A DNA stretch of 62,003 bases, the filler included, from Hausera hauseri (Eukaryota), in NCBI GenBank assembly GCA_046269625.1. It is 10 parts of 10 records of this genome, joined end to end, with 100 filler letters (N's around TTAATTAATTAA, not from the genome) between each part and the next. Parts side by side here need not be neighbours in the genome. Positions count along the whole stretch, not along the records: positions 53,838 to 62,003 come from JBJURY010746542.1; 9 more parts are not named here. One strand, 5' to 3'. Within the stretch, counting starts at the first letter, position 1, and each line of letters begins with the position of its first letter. The translations under genes were made by a program, and so were the position numbers. The notes under the pieces were generated by a model. The model was not told where the DNA came from, did not search any database, and was given only the letters and a program-made list of their open reading frames with translations. This document shows, in pieces, positions 2,287 through 62,003 of the stretch.

Positions 2287-3690
2287 TTGAGAAACGATGA
2301 TCAGGAGTTTGTATGTTCCATTAATTATGAAAAGAGAAGTAATAAAACCCCAAATTACGAGATACACAAATATCTCTGTTTAATGATTTTTATAGGAATA
2401 CCAGGCCTATTAGCCCAAACGACAAAACCACTCAATCCATGGATGAGAACATTCCCTTCAAACGAAACGTTAGAAAGTAGTTTGATAAAAAGTATTTCTC
2501 ACGAGATATCCTATACAAGGAAAGGTGAAAAATGTATCAGATTTATGATATTTGAAAGGTTACCCAACCAGTATATGATAGGAATTCAACTAATCCATGA
2601 GTATAATTACGAACAAATCCCGAAACAACAAAAGTATTACTGTTGTCTTACTTATTGGAAAAACCCAACGGATTGTATAGTAGACGACTCTGGTAACTCT
2701 CATATACTATACCCTGATCAAGAGGCATAAGAATAGCTACCAATGGCAATATACCAAGTGTCGAGGTATCATACAAGTCCATAATAGACGAACAATGAAT
2801 GTGACTAAATTAGACGAGATAATAATAGCTCAAATTACCACTAAGCCGCTAGGATTTAAAAGCGGACGACGTTGTATCGAAATTAGAACGACGATAGAAT
2901 TGGAAGAGAACAGAGCAATAAGTATAACATTTACCGACGTCCAAAAGAAGCAAAAGATACCCACAAAATGCCAACTGACTCATAAGCATCTCCGAGTCTG
3001 CTGTAACGTTTTACGAGGAAAAACCTGACTTAGAATTTGTGTTAGTACGAAAGGATTCAGAGAGTATCAAGACTAACTCATCAAGGACCCAAAATATATG
3101 TTCAACTCAAAAATATTGAATATGACGACGATGGGCAACCAAGTGTTACGACACCTGTTACGAAATCCTCACTGTTTAATAAAATAAGAGAAATGACCGT
3201 CCTTATTCAACCTCACGCTTCATCCTATCGTTATAAGCGTTCCGTTTTAGAAAATGTTACAATATCTTCCACGTCCACCTCCCTAGTTGTAGCTACCCAA
3301 CCTGATTTAAACTTTTATAAAATTAAACTGATCTGTAAACTAGACCTAAAGATTGTCGCCAAAGGCGTAATTACGCCAGATGATACTATAGTACCATGCG
3401 CCAATCTAAGTCCAAACACCAAGTATATAGTCATATTGCAACTGTAAAACGATGACAATACGATAATTTCCACTAAATTACTAACGGCTTCAACAAAAGC
3501 CAAAATACAGTAAAAAGTAGAAAGCAAAATAAACACAAGTTAGAGTAAAAGTCCACCAAAATTACGTTATACCTATTCCCGAATAGAATTAATAATAATA
3601 TGAACGGTTTACCCCATAGTTTTCCTAATTGTGTTAGTGTTTATTATAAAAATAATTGTTTGTACGAAAAAACGTCGCAGATCAAACTGA
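2287..3690 (+). pseudogene. Post-integrase type I membrane protein (signal peptide, two Cys-rich units, FN3-like domain, TM anchor), degenerate
   Basis: In frame with the integrase tail (VHVSRFKPAPKESKLRND...). Signal-like YLCLMIFIGIPGLLA; two C...CC units; CANLSPNTKYIVIL (FN3 L-x-P-x-T-x-Y motif); TM VYPIVFLIVLVFIIKIIVC followed by TKKRRR. Confidence 0.7.
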
Positions 3691-3930
3691 GTTAGAATAG
3701 ACATGCGACGTATACCGAATATCTTGGATACTGATAATCCAAGTTGACGATGGCTTCTGTGGATTGTTGTCGACGCAATCCGAAAAATTAAGATAACTGA
3801 ATATTACTCAGTTACCGCAAAAACCAATAAGAAATTTAAAATAACAACGATTACCAAATTGAAATATATGATAACCGTTGTACTATATTTAAGATTTTGT
3901 GATATGTATATGACGTTGATTTTTATAGTA

Positions 3931-5232
3931 ATGGACATTCAAGCCGTGCAGCGCAGCAAGAATTTTTATGAAAACACCAGAAATCATCTCATAAACGCAA
4001 ATCCTTCCAACCAATATCATATCCGAGTCAACGAAAACACCTACAGTCTTAATTATCCACTAGTTCAGCAGATGCCCAATAATCTCAAAGGGTATGCAGT
4101 GGGAAATCGATCATTGGCGTTAGTTCACATAACAAAGGCCACCTTATTTCTTCTGCAAAATTTGATTAGCTTTCCGGATAAATTTTATAGTGTTAATATC
4201 TACGACATCATCGGCAAGTTCCAGATAAAATTAAAGGACGTGAAAACAAATCAGCAAGGAGAATTAATCAGTTTGGACCCAAATCACAGAATGATGCTCC
4301 CATTCGATTTAATCAAAAGAAAAACCCTCAAGATTCGGACGTTAACCAATCGAATCATGCTCGGAATAGAGCTAATAAAAGCAGAACCCATCTGGACGAC
4401 ACCCGCACAAGGGAAGTGCTTCAACTTGACGGAACCCGACTATTTAAAATATACCAGTAGATCGTATCGAAGGATGCCTCAAGTCTCTAACGAAAATATC
4501 GTAGTTTCTGCAGTCAATTTGGCATATGATCAAAATAACCAGATTACGCCGTTAGAATGTTCAGTAATAAACCTCCAGGGAGATACCCTGTTCTATACAT
4601 TAATAACCCCACGACAAAGAATCAATAATTTTGATTCCCATATGACAGGACTTACCGAAAACAACATTAACAACCAAATGGATGCTAATTCATTCTATCA
4701 AAAGATTTCAGCCCTTTTGAATGACAAGATAGTTGTTGGAGCCGGAGTACTAGAGATGTTACTGAAACATCTCCTTTGTCCACTACGTCGAATTATGGGA
4801 GTGCGTAATGTGCTTTATCACAAAGACATAATTCGGACGTACAAACTGAAAACAAAAGCCTATAAGGAGTTGGCCAAAAAGTTCTATGAAATGAAAGGAA
4901 TGACACTCCGCAGTATGGCACTGGTACAATGTTACCACGCCTTATATAAAACTTTACGATGGGATGACGAATTGATAAATGAGACGACGGCCTCGGACAG
5001 GGTCCTAATAATACCAAAATAGCCATCTTCCACGAAACGAAGGATCGAGATAGAGGAAGAAGTATTAATAGATGGCGAAATCTTTAAGCCAGACGGATTA
5101 CGATACAAATCAAAATCAGGAAAACTATCTTCCGTTTCCTGCCATCCAATCATTAAATTCGGGACAATTTTCTTCTGCCCCGCCCTCCGCAATCTGATCG
5201 AATTTCAGTCCACAGCACTAAATGAAAAATAA
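3931..5232 (+). CDS. 3' accessory ORF with a DEDDh/REX4-ISG20-like exonuclease fold lacking catalytic acidic residues (one stop at 5020-5022)
   Basis: ECSVINLQGDTLFYTLITPRQRINNFDSHMTGLT...QKISALLNDKIVVG matches the REX4/ISG20 pattern S(I/L)VN..G.VLYD..(V/I).P...V.DY...VSGI...L.G.I.VGH. Probable ATG at 3931 after acceptor TTTTATAG. Confidence 0.7.
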
Positions 5233-5271
5233 AGTCAGCACTAAATGAAAATAAATAAACAAACCTCTGAA

Positions 5272-15835: not shown

Positions 15836-15849
15836 GCATCGAATATTGA

Positions 15850-17018: not shown

Positions 17019-17106
17019 CAAAAAAGAACTCTAATCGTTCTTGTATAACCCAAATTAAGAATTCAAATCGGAGTTTTAGACGTCTTAGAAGAGTCTTAAT
17101 GCACAT
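17019..17106 (-). CDS. LTR-encoded small ORF, partial (MCIKTLLRRLKLRFEFLIWVIQERLEFFF...)
   Basis: Homologous to 43878-44036 with many synonymous codon differences. Confidence 0.7.
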
Positions 17107-17580
17107 TAATTGTTAGAAAGTATTTTTTCTATATCCCTTGTTTTGTTTAATCTAATCCAAATATACAATGGATTCGAAGGAGCTGTAAATTAAAGGAAAG
17201 AATTATTTATTTCTTACTGTTAAGGTTTTATTTATTTATTTGTAAGTGGCGTACCCTACTTGTGCTTCAGGTGCCAACGCTATTACTTAATGGGAATAGT
17301 TAATATTACTTATTAAAGAAGAGATCAATAAGTCAAACAATCTTTTCTTAGAATTGTTACTTCAAATCTTCTTTGTTCTGGATTCGGAGTGGTTTCCCTT
17401 TTTGTCAAGACTTCAAATAAGAATGAAAAATATATTTCAAAATGGAACTAAATATCAATGGTAATATAGTTACAATGACAAACAACAATAGTCAAAATGA
17501 ATATAAAAGAAAAAATTACCAGTTTTACCGTTTTATAAATTTATATAGGGAATCTAACCCAAAAATTTCTCCTTTGTTTG

Positions 17581-17690
17581 AAAACAGTAGAAGTCCGAAT
17601 AGGAGTAATCGAAGGAATTTAACCTTTTGTGCAATAATTCAAAATTGAAGAAGTCCGAATAGGACTAATCGAAGGAATTTAACCTTTTGT
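17581..17690. repeat. 60-bp-period tandem duplication in the LTR
   Basis: AGAAGTCCGAATAGGA(G/C)TAATCGAAGGAATTTAACCTTTTGT at 17589 and 17649. Confidence 0.9.
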
Positions 17691-18122
17691 AATGGAAACT
17701 AATAAACATTTTAGTTAACTTGGACTAAATTTATGTTTGATAAATTTCTTTTTTTTGTGTGTGTTCGTTGAAATTTAGGTTTGTATTTATACTAATTTTT
17801 CTCTTTTTAAAAAGGAGGTGTTAAGTTGCTGTTTTTAGCAACTTGTATATGGGTTTTTAGTTGCTTATTTTAGTAACCTTTACTGTTATTTTTCTGTGAA
17901 GTTTGGCACACATTGTAGCATCTAAATGCAGTGGTTAGTAATAACTTTAACATCTTATTTTGTTCATCGAACATCCATCGTCACTATTCATAGAAATCAA
18001 TCAATATTTTGTTCAGTGCAAAACAACTGCAACCACGCATTCTGTGAGTTACAATCGAGGCAGGTGATGTTGATTTAGTTATGGACATTACTTACTTAAC
18101 AAATGAATCTTAATACTTAACA

Positions 18123-18135
18123 TCTTCCTCCCCTT
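18123..18135 (-). promoter_or_regulatory. Polypurine tract
   Basis: AAGGGGAGGAAGA directly before the LTR start TGTTAAG on the minus strand. Confidence 0.85.
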
Positions 18136-18327: not shown

Positions 18328-21300
18328 TTAACTCGCCATTTTCACTATCAGTTGATGCGGTTGATTGTTCATTAATATAGGATTATCAGTTTTTTGAAGT
18401 CCATATAAGTTTTCTAGTATGTATCCGTTTGACCCTTGGTATAGAATCATTCGGATGTTTGATTTCGCGTAGTCCATTTGAAGGATCTTACCATTCCTTG
18501 GTTTAGGATATGGCGTGTCATCCAATTGCATGGGTATTGGCTGGAAATTTACAATTACTTCATGATGTGTTTGTTGGAGGATCTCATATTCAACTCCAAA
18601 AACAGCCATATGTAGAGTATTATGTGTCTGGTGTTTGTAGACTAATCCAATAACTTTACCAAAATTAGCATTGGAGATCAGTAAGTTTCCATTGTACGTA
18701 TGTAACGTAGTTGTCGGTATATACGTTACGTTGATTATTTGTTTCGAATTTCCATAAAATAAAATAGACAACCGAATTTTATTATCAGGTAGTTCTTTTG
18801 TAGCAAATTTTTTGAGATATTCCTTTGTATGTTCTTTGAGTTGCTGTATAATCTTTCTCTCGTCATCCGTATGAATCTCAATTTTTTCTTTGATATAGTC
18901 GTTATGATATTTTGAATCTATTTGGTCGAATGAACCGTTAGCAATTAGATTATTGATTGGAGGCGTCCATTGTAGGTTCCATTTTTCATTTGTACAGGTT
19001 TTATTTAGACTTTCATAAATATTGATAATGGCGTCCATGATTGATTCCGCGTTTTTTGGGAATTCGTAACTTAATCCGTATAATTGTGGTAATTTTGTGA
19101 GACATTGTTTGATTCCTTGTTCATTGAAACGATTTGTGGAATTTGAAATTGCGAAAAGATCTACTATCCAATGTAAAATATCCAGGGGTATCCTTAATGA
19201 TTGTAATATTGTAACCGTATTAACGCTGATAACGGTGTATCCAAACAAATACTTGATAATTTCTGCTCGTACCATTTCTTCGTCTGTTGATTGATTTATG
19301 ATGGGTAGGCTGAGCCCGTGGTAATGTTCATTCGAATTGTCGATCTTTATTCTTGGGTTAATGAATTCACGGTAAGTTATTAATCCGTTTGAGTCTGCTA
19401 TTATGACTTCAACAGGCAGTGGCTGTCCTCTTGTCGAATAGGATAAAGAGGTACTCAAATATCGGTAATTGTTGGTTCTGGTTAGCTGGAAATTCTGCTG
19501 TATGTCTTTTGGCGGTTTTTGGGCAAACATTGGTGGGTTTAGACCAAGATAATTATCCATAGGTTGACATATTTCTACGGCTATCACAATTGGAATAGTT
19601 AATGGTCTGAAATGGATAGGAGTTTGGAATGCTCTTGCTTTGATTTCTAATGTAGTTTTCGAGTTTATGATTGCTTCTTGAGGATTTGCTCCATCATAAA
19701 TTTCTTGTTCGGTTCGAAGTTGGATTTTACCTTGAGCCATGTGTAAAAATACGCATTTGAATGGTAATTTTATCCCGAAAATAGTACTCAAGTTTATGTC
19801 ATATAGTGCCTTATCTATTCGGATAATTTGGAAAGTGCGATCATTCGTCGTCATCGTTTTTAAATTATTAGGTAGAAATCTCGCCTCTGGGAAGAATATA
19901 TCATCTGTAGATTTAACAGCTTCCATTATAGTATTATAGAATTTTGGTGGAAAGATATTTCTTGGATCTTGATGATGCTTTACAAATTTCTGAGATAATT
20001 CTGTCCATGTCCTGTTTAGTATCTCATCTTGTTTGCATTCTTCCATATTTCGGATTATTGTTTCTCGCAACTTGAGATATTTCTTTGGTGGGAGATCTTC
20101 GATTTGGATTCCCTTTCGTCTTATTTCAATCATTGATTTAACTTGTGGCACATTACTGGAAACTGGTTTGGAGATGGGTATCGATAATATACCTCTTGAC
20201 ATTGGTAATTGAGTTGGATTACTGAAGGAGAACTGGGATGAACATGATTGAGTTGGTAGCACAACCCTTCTTTTAGGGTTTGCTATGACTGATATAATTG
20301 ACTGATCTGAATCTGATTCTGTGGATGAAGCGTCGAGATCGATATCTGTGTCCATTATTGTTGGAAACTCATCCCTTTTTTTAGAGATATTGTCTGTTGT
20401 TGCTGATATTTTATCCATATTTGGTTTTGAAAAAGTCGCTGTAAGAAAATAAAAATTTTTTATAGTATTTGTAATAGAGTAGGTGGTTACTCTATAGGTT
20501 TCTTGCTGACCAATTTCTATTGGTCTTTTAGACTTTGTGTAAAGTATTGTGCTTTGGTTGGCACATTTGTGTGTTGGTATATAAAATTTACTTATTTCAT
20601 GTGTGTGTTTATAAAGTTTTTTAAACTCCCAAACGCCAACTGCCCACTCCACACCAAAATCTGATCTAGTGGTTGCTAAACATATTAAGCTAGTTGTTAC
20701 TAATAGAGTTTTGTTCATAATAACTCGTTTTTTAGAGATTCTTTTTAATTCGATAATTATGAAAGGTGTGGATATAGAGAGTAACAAGAGTATTACTATT
20801 ATAGAAGGTATTATGGTTCTTAGCATGGTTATTTGACTATTAGGACTGGTAGTTAATTGGGTTGGTGTATTTATTAGAAATTCTTCGTGTATTACATATC
20901 TATCGGTTCTAGTTAGGGTTCTAACCGTTTGATGCTTTGTTTTTGCTTGGTTTTGAGTAAGAATGATCAAATATTCCTCGTCAGGTTGGAGATCAATACA
21001 TCGAGTTATTCTTTCTTTTTCTTTCATGACAGTGTATATATTATGGTATTTTCCTACGCAAGTTATGAATATGGGATCTTTTACTAATTGTAAAGTTTTA
21101 AATTCAATATATGAATCCGAGGGGGTGATGAGTATTTCAGGTATTTTACTTAGTTTGGAAGTAGTAATTTGATGGTTACTAAAAGTTGATAATGCTATCA
21201 TGGTTGGTGAAGTTATTTGCTTTACTTGGAAAAATTGTAATAGCGACATATGGATATGAAAGTTCAGAGCCTTTTCGCCGGACTTATGTTTGAACAATCT

Positions 21301-21564
21301 AGGGAAATAATATGTTATTTGTAAATCAACGTCGTTTGTTAAGGTCGGTCTCTTTACCATGACTTTGTCTATTAATTTTGGTTCATTGTCCTTTTCTTGG
21401 GTAAAGAAGAAGTTAGGGCCTATTTTTTCTACGTGTACCTGTCTTGCTATAGGCAGGATTTTCTGGTTTGGTTTCAATAACATTCTTGTTGTTAGAAAGT
21501 AAAGGTCTATAAGACAGATTTCATTTAATAATGGAATTGAACAACGTTTAGTTGATAACCAAAT
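18328..21564 (-). CDS. Intact Gypsy 3' ORF (>1078 codons, open to the contig edge): FN3-like ectodomain, TM, second hydrophobic segment, then accessory protein with an inactive DEDDh-like domain
   Basis: RCIDLQPDEEYLIIL (FN3-like); IIPSIIVILLLLSISTPFIIIEL-KRISKKR (TM plus basic stop); EVIIADSNGLITYREFINPRIKIDNSNEHYHGLS (DEDDh fold). Lies just 5' of PPT/LTR; collinear with 39970-42584. Confidence 0.85.
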   Translation of the reverse strand: MWLSTKRCSIPLLNEICLIDLYFLTTRMLLKPNQKILPIARQVHVEKIGPNFFFTQEKDNEPKLIDKVMVKRPTLTNDVDLQITYYFPRLFKHKSGEKALNFHIHMSLLQFFQVKQITSPTMIALSTFSNHQITTSKLSKIPEILITPSDSYIEFKTLQLVKDPIFITCVGKYHNIYTVMKEKERITRCIDLQPDEEYLIILTQNQAKTKHQTVRTLTRTDRYVIHEEFLINTPTQLTTSPNSQITMLRTIIPSIIVILLLLSISTPFIIIELKRISKKRVIMNKTLLVTTSLICLATTRSDFGVEWAVGVWEFKKLYKHTHEISKFYIPTHKCANQSTILYTKSKRPIEIGQQETYRVTTYSITNTIKNFYFLTATFSKPNMDKISATTDNISKKRDEFPTIMDTDIDLDASSTESDSDQSIISVIANPKRRVVLPTQSCSSQFSFSNPTQLPMSRGILSIPISKPVSSNVPQVKSMIEIRRKGIQIEDLPPKKYLKLRETIIRNMEECKQDEILNRTWTELSQKFVKHHQDPRNIFPPKFYNTIMEAVKSTDDIFFPEARFLPNNLKTMTTNDRTFQIIRIDKALYDINLSTIFGIKLPFKCVFLHMAQGKIQLRTEQEIYDGANPQEAIINSKTTLEIKARAFQTPIHFRPLTIPIVIAVEICQPMDNYLGLNPPMFAQKPPKDIQQNFQLTRTNNYRYLSTSLSYSTRGQPLPVEVIIADSNGLITYREFINPRIKIDNSNEHYHGLSLPIINQSTDEEMVRAEIIKYLFGYTVISVNTVTILQSLRIPLDILHWIVDLFAISNSTNRFNEQGIKQCLTKLPQLYGLSYEFPKNAESIMDAIINIYESLNKTCTNEKWNLQWTPPINNLIANGSFDQIDSKYHNDYIKEKIEIHTDDERKIIQQLKEHTKEYLKKFATKELPDNKIRLSILFYGNSKQIINVTYIPTTTLHTYNGNLLISNANFGKVIGLVYKHQTHNTLHMAVFGVEYEILQQTHHEVIVNFQPIPMQLDDTPYPKPRNGKILQMDYAKSNIRMILYQGSNGYILENLYGLQKTDNPILMNNQPHQLIVKMAS

Positions 21565-39969: not shown

Positions 39970-40510
39970 TAGATGCATTGACCTCCAGCCTGATGAAGAA
40001 TATCTAATCGTTTTCACTCAACACCATGCTGTAACGAGACATCGAATAATTAGAACTCAAACAAGAACTAGAAAATATTTAGCACTTGAAGAATTTCCAA
40101 TTTATACAACCCTACATCTAGTAACTAGGCCCACTACTCAAACCAATATGTTGAAAATCTTAATACCCTCCATAATAATAGTATTCTTTCTACTGTCCAT
40201 ATCCGCACCCTTTGTAATCATAGAATTAAAAAGATTTTCTAAAAAACGTACTATTATGAACAAAACCTTGTTACTCTCAACCAACCTAATATGCTTAGTA
40301 GGTTGTAGTGTGGCGTGGACGGTCGACGCTGAAAGGGATAAAACGTTTAACGTTAAAAATAACTACACTAAATTACATACACTACACAGAACGATAACAA
40401 TGATATACACATCAAAAAGTATAAGCAAATCTCAACCAATATATTTGCAACAACATAAACAACAAATAAAGCATCGAAGGGTAACCACCTACCTTCTAAC
40501 AAACCATTAA
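39970..40510 (+). CDS. C-terminal part of the Gypsy FN3/TM membrane protein
   Basis: RCIDLQPDEEYLIVF then LIPSIIIVFFLLSISAPFVIIEL-KRFSKKR-MNKTLLLSTNLICL, collinear with the 18328-21564 ORF. Confidence 0.8.
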
Positions 40511-40545
40511 AAATGACCTGCTATCAATTTATTTTTCTTTTCAGC

Positions 40546-42584
40546 ATGGATAATTTGAATACGCTAATTTATATACCCGAAAATCAAGGAGAAGAATTTA
40601 ATCCCGATTTGGACGGATCCAGTACAGAGTCAGATTCTAATGCTTCTATTATATCTATACTGCCAAATCCTAAAAGAAAAGTTCTATTACCTAATCAAGA
40701 ACAATTAACCTCTTTTACCTTTTCAAATGCATTGGCTACACTAATGACTAGAGGAATATTGGCACCCAAAACAAAGGATAAAAACCTGAGATAAGGAAAA
40801 CATCAATATCCATTTTGGACATCCGTTGCAAGCCTATAACCTATGATGATCTACCAGATCATAAGAAACTCAAATTACAAACCCAGATACTCAATAATAT
40901 ATCTCAAACCGATGAATACCAGTTATTAAATCGATCTATCAATGAATTGACTGATAAAAATTTATTCGAATCTACGATCCAAATCGAAATCTATATTCAT
41001 CCAAATTTTATGCTTATCTAACAGAATTAACTGAATCGCCAACGGACATTTTATATCCTGAATGCAAATACTTGGATAATGGATTGAAGACTACTACTCT
41101 CAATGATAGATCATTCAGAATACTAAAAATCGAAAATCCTGTATATAACTGTAACCTCACCAAATTGTTCGCCATACATGAAGATATTGACAAAGTTCTT
41201 GTGCACCTTGCTAAAGGGAAGATTCAACTAAGAGCACATTCCGACACCTTTAATGGACTTGATGAAACACGCACCATATTAACCAGTAAAAATTCTATGA
41301 AATTAGAACTGGCTGCTCTCCAAACACAGATTTATTTTAGAGTATAACTAACACCAGTAATACTTAGTATAGAAACATGCCACAAATCAGATCCAATGAT
41401 AGAACTTAAGAAACCCTTATTTCATAGTAGACCACCTTCAGGTACTATCAATTACAAGCTAACAATAACTTGTAATTATAGATATTTGGCTGCCTCTTTA
41501 GTTTATGCTGCTAATGGTGATCCTCTACCTATAGAGGTTATAATAGCAGACGAAAAGCAGCTAATCCTCTATCAAGCTTTCCTAAACCCAAGAAGGCGGA
41601 TATGAAATACAAACGAGCACATCCATGGGTTAAATATGCAACTTATACAAGAAGCTGCAGACGAAGATGTAATACGAAAAGAATTATTCAAGTTTCTTTT
41701 TAAATACGTAGTGGTCAGTGTCAATACCAATGCCATTTTAAAAGCACTACGAATGCCCAAGAGTCTGACATTCGGAAATTTAGATCTACTAGCTACGAAA
41801 AATACAAAAGAACGTTTTAAAGAACATGGATTACGAATTATTCTAACCCAATCGCCAACAATTTATGATTTTTCTTATGATTTTCCCAAAACCGCTGAAA
41901 CAGTTCTACAAGCGATATTCGAAATATATAACAAAGTCGAAAACTCATGCTCTAACGAAAATTGGACATTCGACTGGAACCCGCCTCGAAAGAATCTGAT
42001 AGATATAGGAAGATTCATACAAATTGAATCCACTTATCATGAAAATTATCAATTCGACAAAATCGAATCTATCTCTCCAATTGACGAGATGAAAATTAAT
42101 ACAGTTTCCATTTTAAAGCCAAAACCGGAAATAACATTTACAAGGCTTTCTATTTTATTATATGGAAAATATGGTGGATCTATAAATGTGCGCTACATTC
42201 CTCAAGCAATATACTCCATAACCACAGAGCACCTAATACTCCCAAATAAAAATTTTGAATGTGTTAGGTATAGTATATAAAAATGCTACTCATCAAACGC
42301 TCCACCTAGCCATAATTGGTGGTAATATAGAAGAATTGTTAAAAGTAGAACACGAAACGTTATTGACGCATCAACCAATTCCAATACAACTGGAACATAC
42401 TCCTATTCTCAAACCAAGGAGAAGACTACCAGTTCAATTAAAAAATACTGCCAAACAAAAGGTCCGTATGATTTTGTATAAAAACAAAACTGAACTAATA
42501 TTGGAAAATCTGTACAAAATGCCAATTTCAAATCAGTCAAGCGAAGAACTACTCCAATCAGTTTATCCGGCTATCCAAATCTGA
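40546..42584 (+). pseudogene. Gypsy 3' accessory ORF with an inactive DEDDh-like domain, degenerate
   Basis: Collinear with the C-terminal ~700 aa of 18328-21564 (DLD.SSTESDS, GKIQLR, PLP(I/V)EVIIAD, HGL, NE.W...W.PP); several stops and frameshifts. Confidence 0.85.
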
Positions 42585-42769: not shown

Positions 42770-42785
42770 AAAAGGGGGTGGAAGA
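42770..42785 (+). promoter_or_regulatory. Polypurine tract
   Basis: AAAAGGGGGTGGAAGA, matching AAGGGGAGGAAGA in the other copy. Confidence 0.8.
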
Positions 42786-44103
42786 CGTTACAGAATGAGG
42801 TCAGAAATTAATTGATGATTAATTTATTTGAATTATGAGTACAAAATGTCAAGAAACATTTTTAAAATTTGTAAACATCATAGTTAGATTAATGAATCGT
42901 GAAATTACAACTAAAATCAGTCCAAAACAGTAATGCGTTAATTGCTGGATGTTGAAAGCAAGTTTTGCTTAATTACTGATTTGAGTTTTTTTTCGCAATG
43001 ACAAAGTGTCAACTACTACATTCATGATTTTATCGATTAAACGATGTAATTTAAATGATAAAATGATAACTATTTCATCAATTGAAAATGCTACACGAAA
43101 GCATTTAATAAACTAAAATTATGACACAAAATATACAGTAAACGGAGTATGTCGATGTTACTGCTAAATCAAACAGTATTATTAAACAGCACTTATTTTG
43201 ATAAACGAAAATTATCAATATACAGTAAATGAATTATATCGTTTGATTTTATTGATGTTACTGCTAAAATTAAACAGCACTATTAAACACCCACTATAAT
43301 TGAACCAACACCTATATGAATTAAATCAACACCCATACAAATTAAATCAACACCCACAAAGTAAATAAGCAAAACACCCCTGACAAAATAAATTTCTCCC
43401 AATAACGTAAAAATACTATAAAAGAAAAACCAAAAAGAATGAGAATGAACAGCAGTTAACATAGAAAATTTACTCAATTACGAGTCAAATATCACTCCTT
43501 TTATTTTCAAATTATTCGTGATTATTGTACATTTCTGGGTTCAATTCCCATCTTGTACATTTACGAAATTGCAATTTTGCTTTTCAGTTACTAATTGGAC
43601 TTCGGTAAACTTTTATTTATTTTTGTAAGAAACCATATTATTTGTTGTTCTTTCTATTCTCTATAATTAATTTTAAACTCAATCCCACAAATTAATCAAG
43701 CGGCAGCGGTCGAAACCAAAGTAGACCATCGCTGAACTACACAAAAGTAAATAAATTAAAACATTAAGGGAAAATAATTCTTTCTTTTGATTTAAATATT
43801 TTCCTTCTCAATCCATTTCGTTTGGATTAGAACAAATCATACATAAGGGACTCCAACAACAATTGAAATTTCATTAAATGTTTACGAAAATTAAAAATTT
43901 CTTAAGAAAATTAAGAAACAGAATTGAATTTTTAATCTGGGTTACTGAAGAAAGATCAGAATTTTTCTTCGGAAGAAAAGCTATACAAAAAGAAATAAAA
44001 CATCAACAAGAATTAAATATGCAACGAAGCTTTTAATTAGAGACAAGAATCCGAATTTTTAAACTCTTCAATATAGTTTGAAATTTTGGACAGTGAACCA
44101 ACA
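42786..44103 (+). mobile_element. Complete ~1.3-kb LTR (CGTTA...CAACA; first base presumably T>C)
   Basis: Bounded by PPT on the left and PBS on the right; internal short repeats at 43131-43380; homologous to 17019-18122. Confidence 0.8.
43878..44036 (+). CDS. LTR-encoded 52-aa ORF MFTKIKNFLRKLRNRIEFLIWVTEERSEFFFGRKAIQKEIKHQQELNMQRSF
   Basis: ATG-to-TAA ORF below the ORF-track cutoff; protein-level conservation with 17019-17106. Confidence 0.75.
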   Translation: MFTKIKNFLRKLRNRIEFLIWVTEERSEFFFGRKAIQKEIKHQQELNMQRSF

Positions 44104-44107
44104 TTTC

Positions 44108-44126
44108 TGGCGACCCTAACAGGACT
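44108..44126 (+). promoter_or_regulatory. Primer-binding site, tRNA-Arg type
   Basis: TGGCGACCCTAACAGGACT versus TGGCGACCGTGACAGGACT, the complement of a tRNA-Arg(UCG) 3' end as recalled; 4 nt after the LTR end. Confidence 0.8.
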
Positions 44127-44287
44127 TGTCTCTAAATCAAAGTTACAATTAAAACACAAACATACCTAGAAAATGTCCTAATAAACGTGCGACTGTCGAC
44201 TCCACACAAAATCTATAACTTAAAGATCTAGTAGTAAACCTAGAACCTTTAAATCTTGCCTTATTATATCCAGACTTACAAAACGAA

Positions 44288-45397
44288 ATGGCACAACCTC
44301 CACCAATTAACTTAACCATTCATAAACCTCTAAATATTCCAAAATATAACGGCGATCCTGCCGGTTTACTCAAGTTTTTGAAAACTTATCGCTTATTAAG
44401 CGAAGGATTAGGCGTTGATCAACAAGCCTATATCCGTAGAATGCCCCTCTACTTAGATGAAGTAGCTCTTGACGTTTTCCAAGAAATAACTCCTGAAGAA
44501 AAAGCTGATTGGGATAAATTAACCTCTGCACTAATTAAACGTTTGATGCCAACGGTAACCCCAACAGCTCAACTAGCCATCTTACAAAAAAGATTTCAAC
44601 AATCTGGCGAAACTGTTACTCAGTATTCTTATGCCCTATCAGAACTAGTAAAAAATTACGCCAACACTGTTAAGACCCAAATCTTAATTAAAAAACCTAA
44701 CGCAAAAGAAGATGAATTAAAGGTTGAAACAGACATTCACCTATTAACCCAATTTTTGAAAGGTGTCAGAAAAGACATCAAAACAGACATCTTAAAAAGA
44801 AATTGCCTAACATTCAATGAAGCAGTGCGTGAAGCACAGAATCTCGAGGCATATGTAGGCCCTTATAAAGACGAACGATTTTCTAAGTCTAACCAAAGAT
44901 TTAACAATCAAAATTCGAATAACCAACAACAAAATCAGCAACAGAACCAATCTAAATCTCAAAATGAAAATAATCAACAACAAAGCCAAAATAGAACCCA
45001 ACAAAATCAAAATAATTACAATAATTTAAACAATACCAACAGTTCATATTCAAAGAATAATAATTATGGAAAAAGACAGAATAAGAATAACAATTCATCT
45101 AACCAATATCAACAAAAAGGACGTGTTGATGTTAATAGAAATGGTACACCTTTAGTTTGCCGAAGATGCGAACAAACAGGCCATAATTCAATAAACTGCA
45201 TGAACCTTCTATATCAACTTCCAAGAGTAAAACAAGAAAATACAGTCAATTTATCATCCCTTCATGAAACATTAGATGTTAAGCTAAAATTAGATAAATT
45301 AACACCCCAAGTTAAAGAACAATTTATCAATCAAGCCGCTAATGCTCGATTTTATGCTGTTAATGTAAACGATAAACAAAACAACGAAATCAAATAA
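44288..45397 (+). CDS. gag: Intact Ty3/Gypsy Gag (capsid, Q/N-rich linker, CCHC knuckle)
   Basis: IPKYNGDP...FL..Y; MPLYLDEVALDVF; FQQSGETVTQYSYAL; QFLKGVR; CRRCEQTGHNSINC. Confidence 0.92.
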   Translation: MAQPPPINLTIHKPLNIPKYNGDPAGLLKFLKTYRLLSEGLGVDQQAYIRRMPLYLDEVALDVFQEITPEEKADWDKLTSALIKRLMPTVTPTAQLAILQKRFQQSGETVTQYSYALSELVKNYANTVKTQILIKKPNAKEDELKVETDIHLLTQFLKGVRKDIKTDILKRNCLTFNEAVREAQNLEAYVGPYKDERFSKSNQRFNNQNSNNQQQNQQQNQSKSQNENNQQQSQNRTQQNQNNYNNLNNTNSSYSKNNNYGKRQNKNNNSSNQYQQKGRVDVNRNGTPLVCRRCEQTGHNSINCMNLLYQLPRVKQENTVNLSSLHETLDVKLKLDKLTPQVKEQFINQAANARFYAVNVNDKQNNEIK

Positions 45398-47921: not shown

Positions 47922-48489
47922 ATTTAAATTTTAATTTGAAAGTCGTCGTTTACATTTTCATACAGACTATTTATTGAACAGAATGACGGATTTTTTGATC
48001 TCACACCGTGATGCGTAATCCATTTCGACGATTGTCTTCCAGTATTCAATTTTGTACAATCGCAATATTTTGATTCGTTTTTATGCAATTTTGTTTTGTC
48101 CAGATTTAATGATTTTTTACGTTTTCAATATTAACTTTTATATGTGGTTTTACGCTAATCCAGTTTTTTATTCATGTACATAATTGTTTGTTAAAAAATT
48201 AATTTGTTTTAATACAAGAAGTTAACCTGGAAAAGTTTGAAATTTGAAAAATGAAGACATTTGATTTGTGAACTTTGCATTCATTATTTCGATCCCAATT
48301 TATAACATTTGAATATTTCATTTTGCTTTTATGATTTTTTGATATCACTACATTGGAGCTACATTAGAACATAAACTTTCACAATTCGCCATTTTGACAT
48401 CATAACAATCTTATGGGTGGATTTAATTTCTGAATTTATCTCTCGTTTTCAAAGCTGAAATTTATTTGTTAAATCTAACAGACGTGATT

Positions 48490-53837: not shown

Positions 53838-55220
53838 ATGTGCCGATTAATAACATTGATATAACAAGCGTGCGGAAATGGAGAGGGATTTAGAATATCC
53901 GTAATTAAAACATTGCAACCGCAGATAAGAGAATTACGCGAAAGGATCCAGGTCGGACATGCGGCACTAATGAACTACGAGTTACCTGACACAGATAATG
54001 AAGCCAAGTGGGATGATTATCTATAAGGCCTAACCGAGCAAAGTCAAAGAACTCCAATACAAATTTATGAGTCACCTACTGGTGCACAGAAGATGAAATA
54101 TATCGTGCAAATGCTACTCGATCCTGCGCTAGATGAAAAGGAATTGAGTGGTGCATTGAAAGTAAACATAAGTGAAGAAAGGTTAAGGAAGTTAATTCCG
54201 ACTTTGACTAAGCTATCCAGTGAAAACACCGCCCACCGCGCTGTACTCAAGCTCTTAATAAGAGAGTACGCAAAGGTATTGAAAAATAAACATGAAGCAG
54301 AAATTAAAGTGAAAGTATCGTCTGAAGGAATGGATGATGAGGAATTTGAATGTACTAACTATACCACCGTTGGGGACATAAGACAACGGATAATGAATAA
54401 AGATGGTAGGGAAGAAGTTAATTACCGGCTCTATTTCAGAGGTAGGATAATAGATGAGCCAGAATTCTTAATAGACGTAAGGATAATACCACTCGAAGAA
54501 AACCGAATAATAGCAATAATCACCAGATAGCAAAGCAAAGATGAAGCCGTAAGAAAGGCACATACAGAGAATTGCGTTGGGAAAATCATGGGGATTCAAG
54601 ATGCCGCAATGTATTTCGAATACTTACAGACTGATGACGACAAACCGCAATACGATAAAAATTTAGTTCCTTTAAGAGAAACCGTACCACCTACAAAATC
54701 GAAACGACCGGTCGAAAGACCGAGAAAAACAAAAGAAATTGATTATAATGCAGACTTAATTAGGGAATTGAGACAACTATCCGTACCAACTCCAAGTTCA
54801 GATGATAATGAACTAATTAAGCTAATGAAAGACCTTATCAGGATAGTTAATTATACCGGACTCCAAGGCGACGTATTATGCGGAAAAGAAAGATTAATAC
54901 ATAATATAGCTTGGAAAATGAAGACGTCACGATTCAAATTAAGTAAAAGCACCCTCCCTGATAAAACGGTAATCGATAGAATCATGATAGACAATACGAT
55001 GGAAGAGTTAAGGAAAGTCTTGATATATTTGGCAGTAAGAACTAATCCTCTCCGAGAAAACGAATTCGACAGGACAATTGGGTTAGCTAGAAAAGCTGCA
55101 AGAAGGGTGCCTAAAGAAATAAAGTGGACTAAATTGTTTGAAAAAGAGGATAATACAAAACAGACTAATAAGTTAGAAGAAATGCTCCGAAATATCTCTC
55201 CGAACAAAGGAAACGAATCC
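53838..55220 (+). pseudogene. Upstream polyprotein segment containing a ubiquitin-like domain (54303-54527)
   Basis: Same frame as the glycoprotein start, with single stops at 54024 and 54528. IKVKV...TTVGDIRQRIMNKDG...YRLYFRGRIIDE...LIDVRI parallels ubiquitin TIENVKAKIQDKEG...QRLIFAGKQLED...LSDYNI. Confidence 0.7.
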
Positions 55221-57010
55221 AGTTGGTTAATCAACCTGCTAACGATAATGATGCTAGTAAAGCAGTTAGGAACAATTACCATATACGACTGTGATAAATT
55301 AATAGTGAGTCAGAAATATTCCTTGATAAACTTAGAAACAGGTGAAGATGCGAGGCTTCACAAGCTCCAGACAATAGAGATTAAATATATACTATATCAA
55401 CAACGTGAGTTAATCTCAATGGATGCAACAGAATGCACGATACATAGATCCCGTAGCGTGTTTCACTATGGTAATATGCACGGCCATTGTTCAATAATCA
55501 AACCTACCACACCATTGATACCAATGAACGTAGACATACAACATTGCTTAGGAGCCCGGTCAACCAGTAAAATGGTTTGGGACGGCATGGAATTGGAAGC
55601 CCAAGAAGGGAAGATAATCAGAGCTTACAAAGTGGCAGTGGGAAAATTGAACGTGCACACCGGTTATTGTGTCGGGGAAGAATATGACACAGGGAAGGGA
55701 ATAGAAGCAGGAATAGTAGTCGTAGATTTTTATGAAACCAAGCTAAGATCTTTAAGCGATGTTTCATAGTGTTACCAAACTATTTACCGAAAATCAGAAA
55801 TGTCACATTCATGATGGTGCTTGCACGTTCTGAAGTTCAGTTATCGTATGGAATCCATCCCCCAAGAAGAATTGTAATTTCATTAAAATCAGAGTTGAAA
55901 TTTAATGATACCACCGTGAAGCGTTATTCGAGCAAATAGGGAGGATATAATAGAACAATCCACACCGACGATACTAATATCAGATGTGCACGGGTTAAAA
56001 TTTATCAGAAAGAATATGCTATCGCGCTGCGATGTAGTTATGTATGCCATTAACTACGAAGCATTTTTTGTAGCAGAAAGAGAAATTGATATGACAACGT
56101 ATATTTTAAAAACACAAAATGTGCGGATCGACGATTACCTCAAAAACCAAGACGATTATTTCTATTACAAAGGGCAGACCGGGAAAGGTGAACTCTATCA
56201 CAAAATGATAACAAATGACTGCAGATAAGATATTGAAGTCATGAGAGCCAAACTGTCTTTAACTTACGCCAACCCAGAATTGGCATCACCGATTATACCA
56301 ATGAAAGAAGGTGTTTTTGGATGGGTTACCGGAGAAGTCCTATTAACCTACGAATGGGAGAAAAGAGACGTACCGATTAACGTAGAAGAGAAAATTTGCA
56401 TTCAAGAATTACCGGACATGTATAAGAATATGCCGAGACTAGCGATGCCACTTACCAGAGTATTATTGACAAACTCAACCGAACCAACAATACTGAAGGA
56501 ATGTAAAACGAGCTTAGGCGAACCAATCTTTAGTCGCAGTCGATCCGACTGGATAAGTCTACCAAATGGAGGTACGACTGCAGCTCCTAGTAAATTAACG
56601 GGGACAAATCTAATCAGAGGATTATCGGAAGACAAATTCGAAGATACAGCTAACAAAGGAATTTATAGGCCAAAGGACATAGAAGACTTTAGGCAATCTT
56701 TAGCATTTCCGCGATAGTGAACTTATAAACTGAATCGGGCCATGTCAATGGTCATGGATGACACCTGCTTTCAAGCGAAATGGGAATTGTTACTTGGTGC
56801 TAATCACTATCAAAGGGTAACTTCAGAAATATTGTACAAGATTTTGGGAAGATTTTTAATTTGCGGACAAGCCGCATCAGGATTATTAGCCATATACTTA
56901 TTAGTTTAGTTAATTAATGCAGTGATCCAAGCTATTATAAACGGATATGAAATATTTACTTGACAGGATTCTCTTGCAAAATTTTGACCGCAATTATCAC
57001 ACCCTTTCGA
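55221..57010 (+). pseudogene. env: Chuvirus (Jingchuvirales)-like class III fusion glycoprotein, degenerate
   Basis: Signal WLINLLTIMMLVKQLG then IYDC; ECTIHRSRSVFHYGNMHGH; TGYCVG; ELYHKMITNDC; TGEVLLTYE; CIQELP; PLTRVL; GIY...DIEDFRQSLAFP; membrane region GQAASGLLAIYLLV.LINAVIQAIING. All collinear with chuvirus-type G as recalled. Confidence 0.85.
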
Positions 57011-60000
57011 AAGATGCTTAAGGCCTACGAAAAAAATCGCTGGAAAAATGACGTAGAACGCCACGTCGGGTACTATAACCGCAAACGCCGAGGGAGGCCC
57101 TCTATTTTGTATAAACGTAAAAGTAAGACAACAGTAACACGAAAGGATCATTCAGATGATGACGAGCCTAAGGGAGGAGAAGTGAGATCTAGAATGAAGA
57201 AGCAAAAAATGTACTCAGTGATTAATGCGCCGTTACCTATCATGCCGCCAACAGCACCAATATATGAAGACTGCGACCGCAAATCAATCACATCATGCAG
57301 GTCAGAAATCTATCAAAAGCCCATTAATTATGAAGATCCTTATGAGAAGACAAAACAATATGGAGAACTATGGAAAATGAATGTTATCAACCAAGGACCT
57401 ACAGCAAACGACAATGGAATATTGTACTCAAAAAGAATACAGCGCCACATAGAATCGAAATCAACGATCTGGGAAAACCCGAAACTGTGTTCGATCTCGG
57501 GTTTACTATCTCAGGAACCGCTCATTGACAGTCACGTCAATGAGATGGCAAATAATAATTTATACCCAAACGGAAAATTAAGACAGTTAAGAGAAAATCT
57601 TTTCTCATTGCCAGAAATAACGATAAACGGATACAGAGTCTCTAGTATAAAACGGTCAAAGATAGCGTCAAATTCTTACGGAACAGTAGCAGAAGGGAGG
57701 CCTTTCGCCAAAATATACATCGAGAATTGAGAGGTGTACGCATTGATCGACACAGGATCAGAAAAATCATTTATAAAATATGAATTTATACAAACCACAC
57801 TGCGAGATCAGCTATGCTGGCCATTATTGTCAGATCCTGGTAGCGCAGGAGCATTTGGGCAAGTATCGAAACCGAAATTTAAATGGACTCCTATTTTTCA
57901 TATGATGGGCCAAGCACTCCAACATGAATTTGCCATAATGGACCAATTAACGGATAATGTAGTACTAGGTTGTGATATATTGAAACCGATACCAGGCATG
58001 ACAATCGATGTGCATAACGGAAAATTAATTGAGTTCGAACCAACAAAAGAAACAAAAGTAATAAAGGAAAGGAAATCGGGCGAAGTATGGATTCGGGTAG
58101 ATGAAGACATTCAGTCCAGAAACGAAATGGTAATTTTCGCACAAATTCGTCAAGACAAAGACCTACCAGTATATTTCGAACCTCAAGAGAATATCGATCC
58201 AAACCTTATGTTTAGAAATATTCTATGTAGATTAGTGATGGGACAAATACCTATCAAACTAGTAAACAATGCACCAATTCCCATAAGATTGCACGCTGAC
58301 ACTACTTTAGGTCACACTTGCAGAGTATTGGCAGTAACAATAGAAGAGAAACCATACAAGTGTGCTGAATTTCTACGTCATGTTAAAACCAAATTCTCTC
58401 CTGAGGCTTATTGCAAGTTCTACGAACTATTATGTAAGTACAGTTCAACAGTCGCACAAAATGAAGAAGACATCGGCAGAGCCAAAGCTCTACGAATAAC
58501 GATTCCATTAAGGAAGAAACCCGGCTTGAATGATGAAATCGGTCTAAAAGAACAAAAAATGTCCAAATGGTAACCACCTTTACATTCGTTGAGACCAGAA
58601 ATAACTAAAGAAGTAGAGCAAATGTTAAAGGCCGATATAATTCGACCAAACTACCGATCATGATACTCACCTATACTTATGGTTAAAAAAAACGGAACTA
58701 CAAAACATCGATTTTGTATAGATTATCGGGCATTGAACACACTGATGACGAAAGACTCGATTTCCATACCGTCAGTAAAAGAAGCTTTAGACAGACTCTC
58801 AGGAGCGAAATGGTTTACCACTCTCGACTTACAATCGGGATACTGGCAAGTGTAAATCGAAGAAGAAGATCTATATAAAGCAGCGTTTAAATCACACAAT
58901 GGCGTATACGAATTTAATGTTACGCCTTTCGGCATCACCACAGGACCAGCTGTTTTTGCGAGAATGTTTAATAAGATACTATGGGACTTGATCATTCATT
59001 GGCGTACTTAGACGACGTGATGATAGCATCAAGAACGGAGGAGGAACATTTAAAGGACATTGAGGATACACTCATGCGGCTAGAACAAACAGGGCTGAAA
59101 CTAAATCCAAAGAAATGTAAAAGGGCACAGAACGCAGTACCGTACCTCGTACACATAGTTGGAGAAGGAAGATCAAAACCAGACAAGTCACTGCTTGATA
59201 AAGTATCCGATTGTATGGAACCACAGAATGAAAAGAGTTAAGACACTGGTTAGCCCTATGTGGATATTACGCCCCTTACGTACCAGACAATTCAAAAATT
59301 AACGCGCCATTATATCGCCTACTCAAAAAACGAACTAAGTGGAAATGGTCAGAAGTGGAACACAAAGCGTTCGACGAAATGAAGAAAGTTTTGAGAAGCG
59401 AACCAGTTTTAAGATACATGGATTTTAATCTACCATTCATAATTAAAACAGATGCAAGTAAAGAAGGCGTAGGATACGAATTAGCTCAGAAACAAGAGGA
59501 CAAAGAATTAGAACATCCAGTAGCCTATGGAAGACGCCGGTTAAAGAAAGCGGAAAAGAATTATTCGGTTACCGAATTAGAAATGTTAGCCGTAAAAGAA
59601 GCATTACGACATTTTAACGTCTATGTCTATGGACAAAAGATTACCATAGTGACTGATCACAAAGCAGTTACAACATTGAAAGGACGAGATAATAATCCAA
59701 TATGTAGATTAAACCGTTGGATCGAAGAAATCTCACGATATAACATTGAATTTCAATACAAACCGGGTAATAAACACGTCGACGCCGACAAACTATCAAG
59801 ACTGAAGACAAAAACGAGTGCAATCACCACAATAAAAAAGTCACAACTCGAACAGTTAATTGAACGACAAAGTACTCTAATATTGGATAAGTCGATTAGG
59901 ATTACAGCTGAGCAAGCTAAAGACACGGTTATTCAGCAAATCATCGAGTTCATACAAAATGACAAAATTCCAAAAGGACGGCAACTGAAAAAGCATCTAC

Positions 60001-61180
60001 AGAAACACGGACATAAATATCGCGCATCGAAACAAGATAATACCCTATATTTCGAGCGGAAAGGAAGAAGACTAATAATTATTCCAAAAGGATTGCGTAT
60101 CTAAGTACTCATGGACAAACACGATTCATACTTATCCGGACACATGTCTTGGAAAAGGACATTTGAAAGGATATTAAATAAATATTACTGGCCAAGTATC
60201 TATATTTATGTAAAGAATTGGGTAGGAGTATGCGAAATTTGCGAAACAAAACAGAAAAAGACGAAAGGTTACGTAGCAGAATTAAAGCCCATAAATGTAC
60301 CAGATAGGCCCATGCAAGCCATGTCTATGGATATAGTAGGACCCTTGCCCAAGACTCACAAAAATAACAGATACATTCTGATATGCATGGACCGACTAAT
60401 GCACTTCGTCGAACTAGTGGCACTATTAGATAAAAAGGCAGAAACTTTAGCCAACGCAATGGTAAGAAAAATTATCTGCAGATATGGACCACCCAAATAG
60501 ATCTTAACAGACAGAGGAAGAAACTTCAAAAGCTAATTATTTGAAAAAATTACCAAGATATTCGAAGTCGAACGTTTAACTACTACGGTGTATCACTCCC
60601 AATATAATGGGATGGTCGAACGAATGAATGCAACAGTTATTCGGATATTATCAATAGTACTGGCAAAAGACCAAAAAGATTGGGACGAATTTCTAGAAGG
60701 AATACAATTCGCCATGAACACGACACCACATCCAGCAACAGGGTTTACACCGTTCTTTATGATGTATGGATGAGAAGCAATCTTACCTACAGATCTAGGT
60801 ATGACACCGTACGAAAGGAACATCGAGAAACTCGAGCAAAACTTTGCAGAAGTCTTATTGACAAGACTGCAAAGGTGTTGGGAAGTTGCAAAAACATTAT
60901 CGCTTGAATATGAGTAACAATTTAAAAAACGATATGATAAAAAAACTAAGCCTCATGATCTGGAAAGGGGAAATTGAGTTTATATACATTACCCGGTCGC
61001 AAAGAAAGATGCATCCTTGAAATTAACACGTACTGGGAGAGAACCTTACGAAATCACCCGCACAACGCCAACTACGGTCTTTATTAACAAAAATGGAAAA
61101 GAGGAAGTCGCATCGATCCAAAGAGTAGTTAAAACGGATATAGGACCAATTAAACACTACAATCTAAGACCGCAAGAAAA
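57011..61180 (+). mobile_element. pol: Glycoprotein cytoplasmic tail plus Ty3/Gypsy pol (PR-RT-RH-IN), degenerate
   Basis: ALIDTGS at ~57740-57760; RFCIDYRALN, LDLQSGYWQ, AYLDD; KTDAS, ELEMLAV, TDHK, DADKLSR; H..H...C..C, DIVGPLP, TDRG, GMVERMN. Confidence 0.95.
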
Positions 61181-62003
61181 TAAAACCTCTTCGATTGTCA
61201 CTAGACCAGTATCTTATGCACAGATAATAGTAGAATTATCATTGATTGCGGTTTTAACGCCCAAATCTAATGCGACCCATTAAAACAGATGCTAGAAGAA
61301 AATATAGCCAGTATAACGGGAAATCCAAAGGACAACTGTGTTCAAATAAACAAAAAAGGCGATTAATTAAGGGACGAGTAATTACAGTTCAATTCATTAA
61401 AGAGAACAAAGCAGATCCGGACCAACAGTACTGTCAAATTGACGTCAAACGACCGAAAATATGTTGCAAGTTACCCCAAAAATACAAATATAGGATTCAA
61501 TTAGACTTATATGAAGTTCGACTAAACCAGTCGAGTATTTATTTAGGAAGTTACCAGTTGGGAAATACAATCGGGCATGTTCCGCGGAAGATGACAAGTA
61601 GAATTACAAAAGCAAAGACTACTACTACTATATCCAGCAGAATCACTCCGACCAGTGGATTGTCTCAAAAGGAGCCAGAAATAATTACCATAAAATATTG
61701 GACACAACAACATGAAATACCGTTCTTGGTAGAAGAAGCACTTAATTATGATGTAGAAATAAACTGCCGAACAGAACATAATAATCAGAAGGTAACATTG
61801 GTTAAAGGCAGTCATCGAATCAATTGTATCTACTTGAAACCCAAAACTGACTATGTGATACAAATAAGTGCAGAAAATAGACAAAGCAAAACCTTTACGG
61901 TACGAACGTTAAAGGAGATCGTCTTAATGAAACCACTAATCGATGACGAAACGAAATGCGAAATCTCGACTACCGTTGAAACTGAAAAACTAACTAAAGG
62001 AAC
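61181..62003 (+). pseudogene. Post-integrase membrane protein (signal-like segment, Cys-rich unit, FN3-like domain), frameshifted and cut by window end
   Basis: YAQIIVELSLIAVL in frame with the IN tail; IASITGNP..NCVQI...YCQI....KICC aligns to 2795-3028; CIYLKPKTDYVIQISAEN is an FN3 C-terminal motif. Confidence 0.75.

Follow-up and report, generated by a model that had tools for sequence, protein, structure and literature searches.

A candidate second surface protein behind integrase in decayed gag-env-pol elements of Hausera hauseri

Can a Ty3/Gypsy retroelement carry two surface proteins in a single polyprotein, one of them before pol and the other after it? This question is raised by a stretch of 62,003 nucleotides from Hausera hauseri (GenBank assembly GCA_046269625.1), here called the window, which consists of ten AT-rich contigs with N spacers between them. 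Four of these contigs hold pieces of Ty3/Gypsy-type elements: a chuvirus-like class III fusion glycoprotein (G), a membrane protein with a fibronectin type III (FN3) domain, and a gene resembling DEDDh nucleases. An earlier note, made from the window alone, had joined the pieces into one lineage. On the strength of sequence comparisons, we lean towards reading them as decayed copies of a gag-env-pol lineage like the planarian element Burro, in which G and the FN3 protein would be the fusogen and the attachment protein of an enveloped particle.

Module order and kinship of the contigs

The contig at 53838-62003 carries, all on the plus strand, a ubiquitin-like domain (UBL), G, protease (PR), reverse transcriptase (RT), RNase H (RH), integrase (IN), a signal peptide and an FN3 domain. 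Pfam and profile searches agree with the earlier note on this order; the membrane anchor that it had placed at the end was not recovered, as the contig ends before any anchor, and the open frame at 61258-62001 itself begins after a frame change. The frames are near-continuous, the path through them containing six frame changes and 21 counted stops, a few of which are edge effects, and this contig is a dead copy, too broken to work. PF24664 precedes PR, which puts a class III env upstream of pol, and the order PR-RT-RH-IN with gypsy-type domains marks the element as Ty3/Gypsy (Metaviridae). The contig starts behind gag, and the order of Gag upstream of env is not visible on it. At 1-5271, profiles and hydropathy bore out the order of IN, FN3, transmembrane segment (TM) and DEDDh-like gene. 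The same is true of 39970-46769, where FN3/TM, the DEDDh-like gene, a purine tract and long terminal repeat (LTR)-like DNA with a small open reading frame (ORF) are followed by a CA end, a primer binding site (PBS)-like site and gag. At 17019-21564 (minus strand), FN3/TM, the DEDDh-like gene, a polypurine tract (PPT) and an LTR with its small ORF were found as described; the separate ORFs proposed there are one frame (18331-21564). No contig of the window has both G and the DEDDh gene.

All of these modules are found together in intact relatives. Ten metagenomic loci were fetched with relatives of the DEDDh protein in the second metagenome scan; three scans of viral contigs and the first metagenome scan gave 0 loci. 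Only the loci L001 and L003 reach pol. L001 has an open frame of 3012 amino acids (aa), or 3700 aa including gag (protein P0076), in the order G-PR-PR-RT-RH-IN-signal peptide-FN3-FN3-stalk-TM, followed by a coiled-coil-looking ORF and a DEDDh ORF. L003 has an open frame of 3207 aa, G-PR-RT-RH-IN-signal peptide-FN3-TM, followed by a DEDDh ORF. L004 joins FN3/TM to DEDDh, and the seven other loci are too short. Since L001 and L003 have G, pol, FN3/TM and DEDDh on one DNA, full-length copies in which these genes never co-occur, which the earlier note had named as fatal to its proposal, did not turn up. A search with the L001 frame yielded 185 proteins, 120 of them listed. PF24664 is present in at least 21 relatives (21 of the 120 listed of the 185), G precedes PR and RT in all 15 that were scanned, and gag lies upstream of env in P0076, P0077, P0079, P0087 and P0091. 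The in-frame env is open in L001/P0076 and L003 and near-continuous but broken in 53838-62003. Intact relatives in public metagenomes point to a lineage that is still alive. Neither 18331-21564 nor the G ORF had any match in word-based searches, and Atlas matches for window queries were all below 0.9.

L003 also has an extra signal peptide-FN3-TM unit between two proteases upstream of RT (L003:4090-4700), which brings its membrane proteins and its protease domains to three each. P0086, a full family polyprotein, is filed under a Flavobacteriaceae metagenome-assembled genome as a hypothetical protein and probably stems from a misbinned animal contig.

To place the contigs, trees were built from subsets of 99 proteins with full pol, thinned of near-copies. 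In two quick trees, one of 56 rows and one of 31 rows under a mixture model, both window pols fell into the G-bearing clade, with Shimodaira-Hasegawa-like approximate likelihood ratio (SH-aLRT) support of 96 and 99, respectively; 1-2286 is nested in it and 57734-61180 forms a long basal branch. The 20 best blastp matches of the frame at 59232-61100 (RH-IN) are all members of the G family, and a sister relation of both window pols was not rejected by the approximately unbiased (AU) test (p 0.29). Together, these results argue for a broad lineage to which 53838-62003 probably belongs. Judged by their sequences, the four contigs are distant cousins and not one element family, and the composite drawn from them is a lineage-level picture. 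What survives of the single lineage with two membrane proteins and accessory genes proposed in the earlier note is thus the lineage, carried by the pol clade and by the co-occurrence in L001 and L003, and not the one element.

The two membrane proteins and the ISG20-like protein

G was identified at 55233-56711 by PF24664 (Monjiviricetes_fusion) in two pieces with E values of 3.1e-10 and 6.7e-8, both above the cut-off, and hydropathy places its anchor at about 56860-56940. The region is interrupted by stops and frame changes. Window G retains 11 of the 15 cysteines conserved in the family and gave tblastn scores of 142-249 bits with the 14 best G-bearing relatives and 0 with 99 other polyproteins. 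No furin site was found in window G or in 7 relatives. A motif scan located a PTAP late-domain-like motif at 57248-57259, in the tail of window G.

The second membrane protein continues the integrase frame. A profile of its FN3 repeat, built from 22 repeats of 15 sequences from outside the window, matched three window contigs, at 61744-61893 (E 1.8e-7), 21132-20908 (E 1.4e-6) and 3253-3435 (E 9e-5), with 0 of 60 reversed decoys at E of 1 or less and 0 of 95 other polyproteins matched. For the fourth contig, the FN3-TM piece shares 62% identity with one of the contigs matched by the profile. The view that FN3/TM is the shared marker, put forward in the earlier note, is borne out by this independent profile in three of the contigs. 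In a pairwise comparison between contigs, FN3 was 32% identical over 97 aa, a weak but real resemblance. The repeat holds two conserved cysteines. Pfam fn3 itself stays below its cut-off on the window repeat; the repeat profile weakly matches PDB chains, almost all of them FN3 bearing. A structural model of the window repeat (predicted local distance difference test score [pLDDT], 84) has seven strands and is closest to an FN3 domain of fibronectin (Z 10.8; root mean square deviation, 1.7 A; 79 residues aligned), and among the 50 structure matches listed, most are FN3 proteins. An FN3 fold for the second surface protein is therefore supported by modeling. A single-sequence model of 20710-21564 was of no use (pLDDT, 37).

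With other gypsy polyproteins, many of them partial gene models, as the control set for the tail, repeat and PDZ counts, a hydrophobic segment was found in the tail behind IN in 16 of 18 G-bearing proteins versus 5 of 78 others, and class I PDZ-type C termini in 10 of 21 family proteins versus 2 of 95. As for the ectodomain behind integrase in other members, it is of the Ig type in P0092 and P0096 and small and Cys-rich in P0087 and P0088. A further aspartic protease-like domain lies between IN and the second signal peptide in P0078, P0079, P0080, P0081, P0082, P0083, P0084, P0087, P0114 and P0134.

The DEDDh profile of the relatives is nearest to ISG20L2 (E 3e-27), ISG20 and SDN1, and RNase_T was matched by 14 of 39 scanned relatives (69 had been found by an FN3-DEDDh profile). 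The window copies match the relatives' profile with E values of 1e-30 or better, a partly circular result, since window sequences had served to find the relatives. Among the window copies, 3748-5022 matches 18331-21564 with an E of 3e-8 (weak but real) and is 54% identical to P0001. In the fused frame at 18328-21564, FN3 occupies 21132-20908, the anchor about 20802-20752 and the DEDDh-like domain 19950-18937. A luminal location of this pseudo-nuclease was considered; in 18331-21564, 9 sequons follow the second hydrophobic segment, about as many as composition predicts. The four catalytic positions counted (D, E, H and D) are all kept in 20 of 37 relatives, versus 0 of 4 in each of the three window copies, and the catalytic residues are also absent from P0001, their closest relative. 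By these residues, the nuclease looks inactivated in the window copies. The window branch further has a hydrophobic segment before the DEDDh domain, which is fused to FN3/TM in one copy.

Flanking the DEDDh gene are small ORFs with a coiled-coil look (L001:9207-9875; L003:11571-12008; L004:1773-2207 and 2669-3061), and the two in L004 have a common duplicated start. P0129 has, by eye, a second and different nuclease-looking stretch before G (residues about 100-300, with D-x-E and H-x-A-x-x-D).

It is conceivable how such an element would work. In this reading, a single polyprotein carries the class III G before pol and, behind IN, a type I membrane protein with an FN3 fold. The ectodomains of G and of the FN3 protein would be threaded into the endoplasmic reticulum by internal signal peptides, giving an alternating topology, and signal peptidase together with one to three element proteases would free Gag, G, RT, IN and the FN3 protein. 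Without needing a furin site, G may then act as a class III fusion protein, PTAP, PPxY or YPxL motifs behind it may recruit ESCRT for budding, and FN3 repeats on a Thr-rich stalk may bind a neighboring cell or a junction, as the PDZ-type C termini of relatives would suggest. The ISG20-like protein might counter host RNA defense: in about half of the relatives it would do so as a nuclease, and in the window branch as a dead decoy that binds RNA.

Comparison with known elements and rival readings

Part of this layout has been described before. The earlier note took one env 3' of pol as the norm, which leaves out the published gag-env-pol elements. Burro/GYPSM1 of planarians encodes, in one frame, gag, a Ubi/SUMO-like domain, a BCL2-like domain, an in-frame env related to mononegavirus fusion glycoproteins, PR, a dUTPase-like domain, RT, RH and IN (PMC6431247). 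The family described here resembles it in having a single polyprotein, a UBL, env in frame before PR, a conserved PR-RT block, a Bcl-2-like domain (in 5 relatives), ankyrin cargo in some members, and accessory ORFs that are separate or fused (PMC6431247). It differs in that neither a DEDDh gene nor an FN3 membrane protein behind IN is mentioned for Burro in the available part of that paper, that BIR and MATH domains, which Burro has, were not seen here, and that Bcl-2 was undetected in the window copy (PMC6431247). The Burro elements exceed 30 kb, and their polyproteins have 4,873-5,140 aa, versus 2,700-4,100 aa here; the two are set apart by description (PMC6431247). Errantiviruses of the gag-env-pol type with a gB-type ENV are listed for Nematoda, Bryozoa and Platyhelminthes, and gag-env-pol elements are not monophyletic (PMC13524379). 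These elements and ours have in common a pol of the Ty3/Gypsy type that is preceded by a Chuviridae-like class III env, an ectodomain flanked by a signal peptide and an anchor, and no requirement for a furin site (PMC13524379). The words "fibronectin," "exonuclease," "accessory" and "polyprotein" are absent from the main text of that paper, in which the region behind pol is not described (PMC13524379). Likened by description, some published gag-env-pol elements may belong to this lineage. NERVs, the non-canonical endogenous retroviruses of nematodes, reportedly have a continuous gag-env-pro-pol frame, and their extra ORFs are said to encode a small protein or a helicase and not FN3/TM or DEDDh proteins. 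The placement of ENV before POL in these metaviruses is attributed to Sacco et al. (2022), as cited in PMC13524379.

Other LTR elements offer partial parallels. In the bdelloid elements Juno and Vesta, pol is followed by a gene for a DnaQ-like 3'-5' exonuclease, and small TM-bearing ORF3s occur as well (PMC5408684). Their ORF3 nuclease is of the DEDDy type, RNase D-like and catalytically intact and replaces env (PMC5408684), whereas the protein described here is of the DEDDh type, ISG20/REX4-like, has an extra N-terminal domain, stands alongside G and is often inactivated. Anakin likewise captured a Chuviridae-like G but is a BEL/Pao element of mosquitoes, in contrast to the Ty3/Gypsy-type pol found here (PMC7642597). 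We found no description of a post-integrase FN3 membrane protein or of an ISG20-like accessory gene in the literature, although figures, supplements and repeat databases may hold one. Hence, the question of the earlier note as to whether the architecture is uncatalogued has a divided answer: G in frame before pol and the UBL are already known, and the FN3 protein and the ISG20-like gene extend the known layout.

What, then, does the FN3 protein do? In herpesviruses, gB is paired with separate attachment proteins, and a fusogen and attachment pair is the reading of G and the FN3 protein towards which we lean. A rather unlikely but serious alternative is that FN3/TM is host-manipulating surface cargo, such as a receptor mimic or a signaling decoy, with G alone responsible for entry. 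Its ectodomain is exchangeable (FN3, Ig or Cys-rich), the long cytoplasmic tails with PDZ-type ends would suit signaling, relatives hold ankyrin, UBL and Bcl-2-like cargo, L003 inserts an extra signal peptide-FN3-TM unit between G and PR, and the gag-env-pol elements in print are described as having only G (PMC13524379). However, the position behind IN and the build of signal peptide, ectodomain, stalk and TM are kept across members that are only 32-56% alike in pol, and one-to-one synthesis with G from a single frame fits a structural role. Several findings weigh against our interpretation. The FN3 module is swapped for Ig or other domains or is absent in P0078, P0087, P0088, P0091, P0092, P0096, P0129 and P0135, a pattern that suits exchangeable cargo and an attachment part equally. 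The anchor runs into the pseudo-nuclease in 18331-21564, a copy that consequently lacks a free PDZ tail. The late-domain-like motifs speak for our interpretation, lying within 100 residues of the G end in 9 of 19 relatives with about 1 motif expected, but relatedness among the members and Pro-rich linkers raise such counts. The examined parts of L001 and L003 yielded no LTR pair. Finally, on the phylogenetic side, the G-bearing proteins P0135 and P0162 fall outside the G-bearing clade, and a careful tree of 20 rows gave that clade a support of 93/93, unstarred, with 57734-61180 on a long branch, for which the AU test did not reject an outside placement (p 0.07). The RTs of the two contigs, for which the earlier note had raised unrelated clades as the unfavorable outcome, thus share the G-bearing clade in the quick trees, with this reservation.

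The same data bear on the improbable case that 53838-62003 and the FN3/DEDDh contigs represent different gypsy clades between which an FN3 cassette was swapped or by which it was captured separately. Besides the long branch and the lack of monophyly among gag-env-pol elements, the pols of the two window members are 32-41% identical, near the 28-36% identity to an unrelated gypsy element at 49059-51850, and there is no DEDDh on 53838-62003. Against this stand the blastp matches and the SH-aLRT values given above, a small helical domain before the UBL, the UBL itself and G, all common to the family, and the full module set in L001 and L003. Less probable still is a misassembly or a chance neighborhood of host and element DNA. 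The contigs are short, and the LTR-PBS-gag order at 42786-45397 requires that an insertion occurred in tandem or that the assembly was collapsed; on the other hand, the frames are intronless, co-oriented and near-continuous, and the same order recurs in open frames of independent assemblies.

For gB-type errantiviruses outside Drosophila, the way into new cells is an open question (PMC13524379). In light of this, a surface protein that even very divergent members retain behind IN is a testable candidate for the attachment part, and the ISG20-like gene is a candidate counter-defense factor. A wider proposal, which we make tentatively and rate as rather less likely than not, is that these elements form a widespread and so far undescribed branch of enveloped metaviruses. 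Entry would be divided between two glycoproteins from one giant polyprotein, the class III fusogen and an FN3/Ig attachment protein that is exchangeable; ESCRT budding would proceed through late domains in the tail of the fusogen, and a captured ISG20-like nuclease would be directed against host RNA defense. If true, the complex-retrovirus way of life would have been reached independently within Ty3/Gypsy, with an attachment protein taken from animal adhesion molecules and, in the window branch, a nuclease that was killed and tethered to the membrane.

Remaining modules and other sequence of the window

The coordinates of the element features are collected in Table 1.

Table 1. Element features on the four contigs of the window
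Feature	Position	Strand	Basis or remark
RT-RH-IN of a second, distant member, decayed	1..2290	+	32-41% identity to 58826-61067
Signal-like segment in integrase frame, FN3 (3253-3435), anchor (3616-3666), decayed	2370..3690	+	
ISG20-like DEDDh domain and N-terminal beta domain, hydrophobic segment in front	3748..5022	+	
PPT (18135-18123), TG start, LTR-like DNA	17019..18135	-	Small ORF from 17106 to contig end
Single open frame, 1078 aa or more: FN3, anchor, hydrophobic segment, linker, DEDDh-like domain, C-terminal domain	18328..21564	-	
Decayed FN3-TM-DEDDh-like frame	39971..42584	+	42-58% identical to 18331-21564
Purine tract (42770-42785), LTR-like DNA of 1318 bp (42786-44103, CG...CA)	42770..44125	+	52-codon ORF 43878-44036
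gag, one CCHC knuckle, ends in stop	44219..45397	+	No G or pol behind
Small helical domain directly before UBL	54081..54290	+	Aligns with 5 relatives, 5 invariant columns
UBL	54273..54527	+	Pfam ubiquitin E 1e-3 (below cut-off)
Helical region where 5 relatives hold a Bcl-2-like domain	54741..55172	+	Position
Signal-peptide-like segment, chuvirus-like class III fusion glycoprotein ectodomain, membrane anchor	55221..56960	+	PF24664, hydropathy
Cytoplasmic tail of G and linker to protease	56951..57730	+	Read directly
Aspartic protease, DTGS at 57749, then conserved block	57731..58573	+	Read directly, tblastn
RT-RH-IN, decayed	58574..61180	+	Pfam; blastp; trees
Signal-peptide-like segment in integrase frame	61209..61275	+	Hydropathy 1.79; same place in relatives
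Ectodomain with predicted FN3 domain (about 61675-61920)	61258..62001	+	Repeat profile, model, fold match

At the front of the contig at 53838-62003, the small helical domain gave no convincing PDB or Pfam match, and no family name was found for it. The UBL matches a profile of the UBLs of 7 relatives (E 6.8e-6) and the relative P0077 by tblastn (42.7 bits). While the Bcl-2-like domain of the five relatives matches Bcl-xL (E 5e-5), the region at 54741-55172 showed no match with the relatives' Bcl-2 profile, Pfam, PDB or the Atlas. Ankyrin repeats occur in P0077, P0114, P0125 and P0134, and none were seen on this contig. Behind PR, a block at 58079-58327 occupies the position of the dUTPase-like domain of Burro and matches a profile of the relatives' PR-RT linker (E 1.7e-13); this profile also matches 30 of 95 other gypsy polyproteins, and the block is without a Pfam match. 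The RT has YLDD at 59005-59016, RNase H lies at 59346-59741 (E 6e-34), and the integrase H2C2 domain was matched with an E of 1e-13.

A PPT and one LTR-like stretch were found in each of two contigs, 17019-21564 and 39970-46769, and none on 53838-62003. The ends of the two LTR-like stretches align. Over 21 aligned codons, their small ORFs have 14 identical residues and 9 synonymous versus 7 other codon changes, which we take as signs of coding constraint. The PBS-like site at 44108-44125 differs at two of 12 positions from Arg tRNA ends given in supplement 1 of PMC13524379. The gag at 44219-45397 matches only G-family proteins by tblastn (best, 84 bits; 0 of 99 others) and is less exclusive by profile, with 136 bits versus 112 for the best nonfamily protein. 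The 1.4 kb behind its stop (45400-46769) match 0 of 121 polyproteins. A decayed gag fragment lies at 5954-6666 (minus strand; gag profile E 2e-10).

Elsewhere in the window, a decayed Polinton/adintovirus-like stretch at 9929-16918 includes DNA polymerase B at 10953-11708 (Pfam E 2e-13), a TBP-like ORF at 14611-15114 (minus strand, E 1e-7), a small nuclease-looking ORF at 14076-14546 (minus strand) and, by eye, capsid-like pieces at about 16500-16916. A decayed pair of gypsy pols of another lineage, with a mutual DNA identity of 79-84%, is located at 34436-37125 and 48484-51925 (minus strand), and the pol at 48484-51925 falls outside the G-bearing clade. Pieces of host genes were seen at 29701-31146 (minus strand; FERM central domain, E 5.5e-9; stop at 30127), by which the host is judged an animal-like eukaryote, and, by eye, at 39226-39444 (plus strand; FYVE-looking exon piece) and 47322-47918 (plus strand; exon piece with the look of ankyrin repeats).

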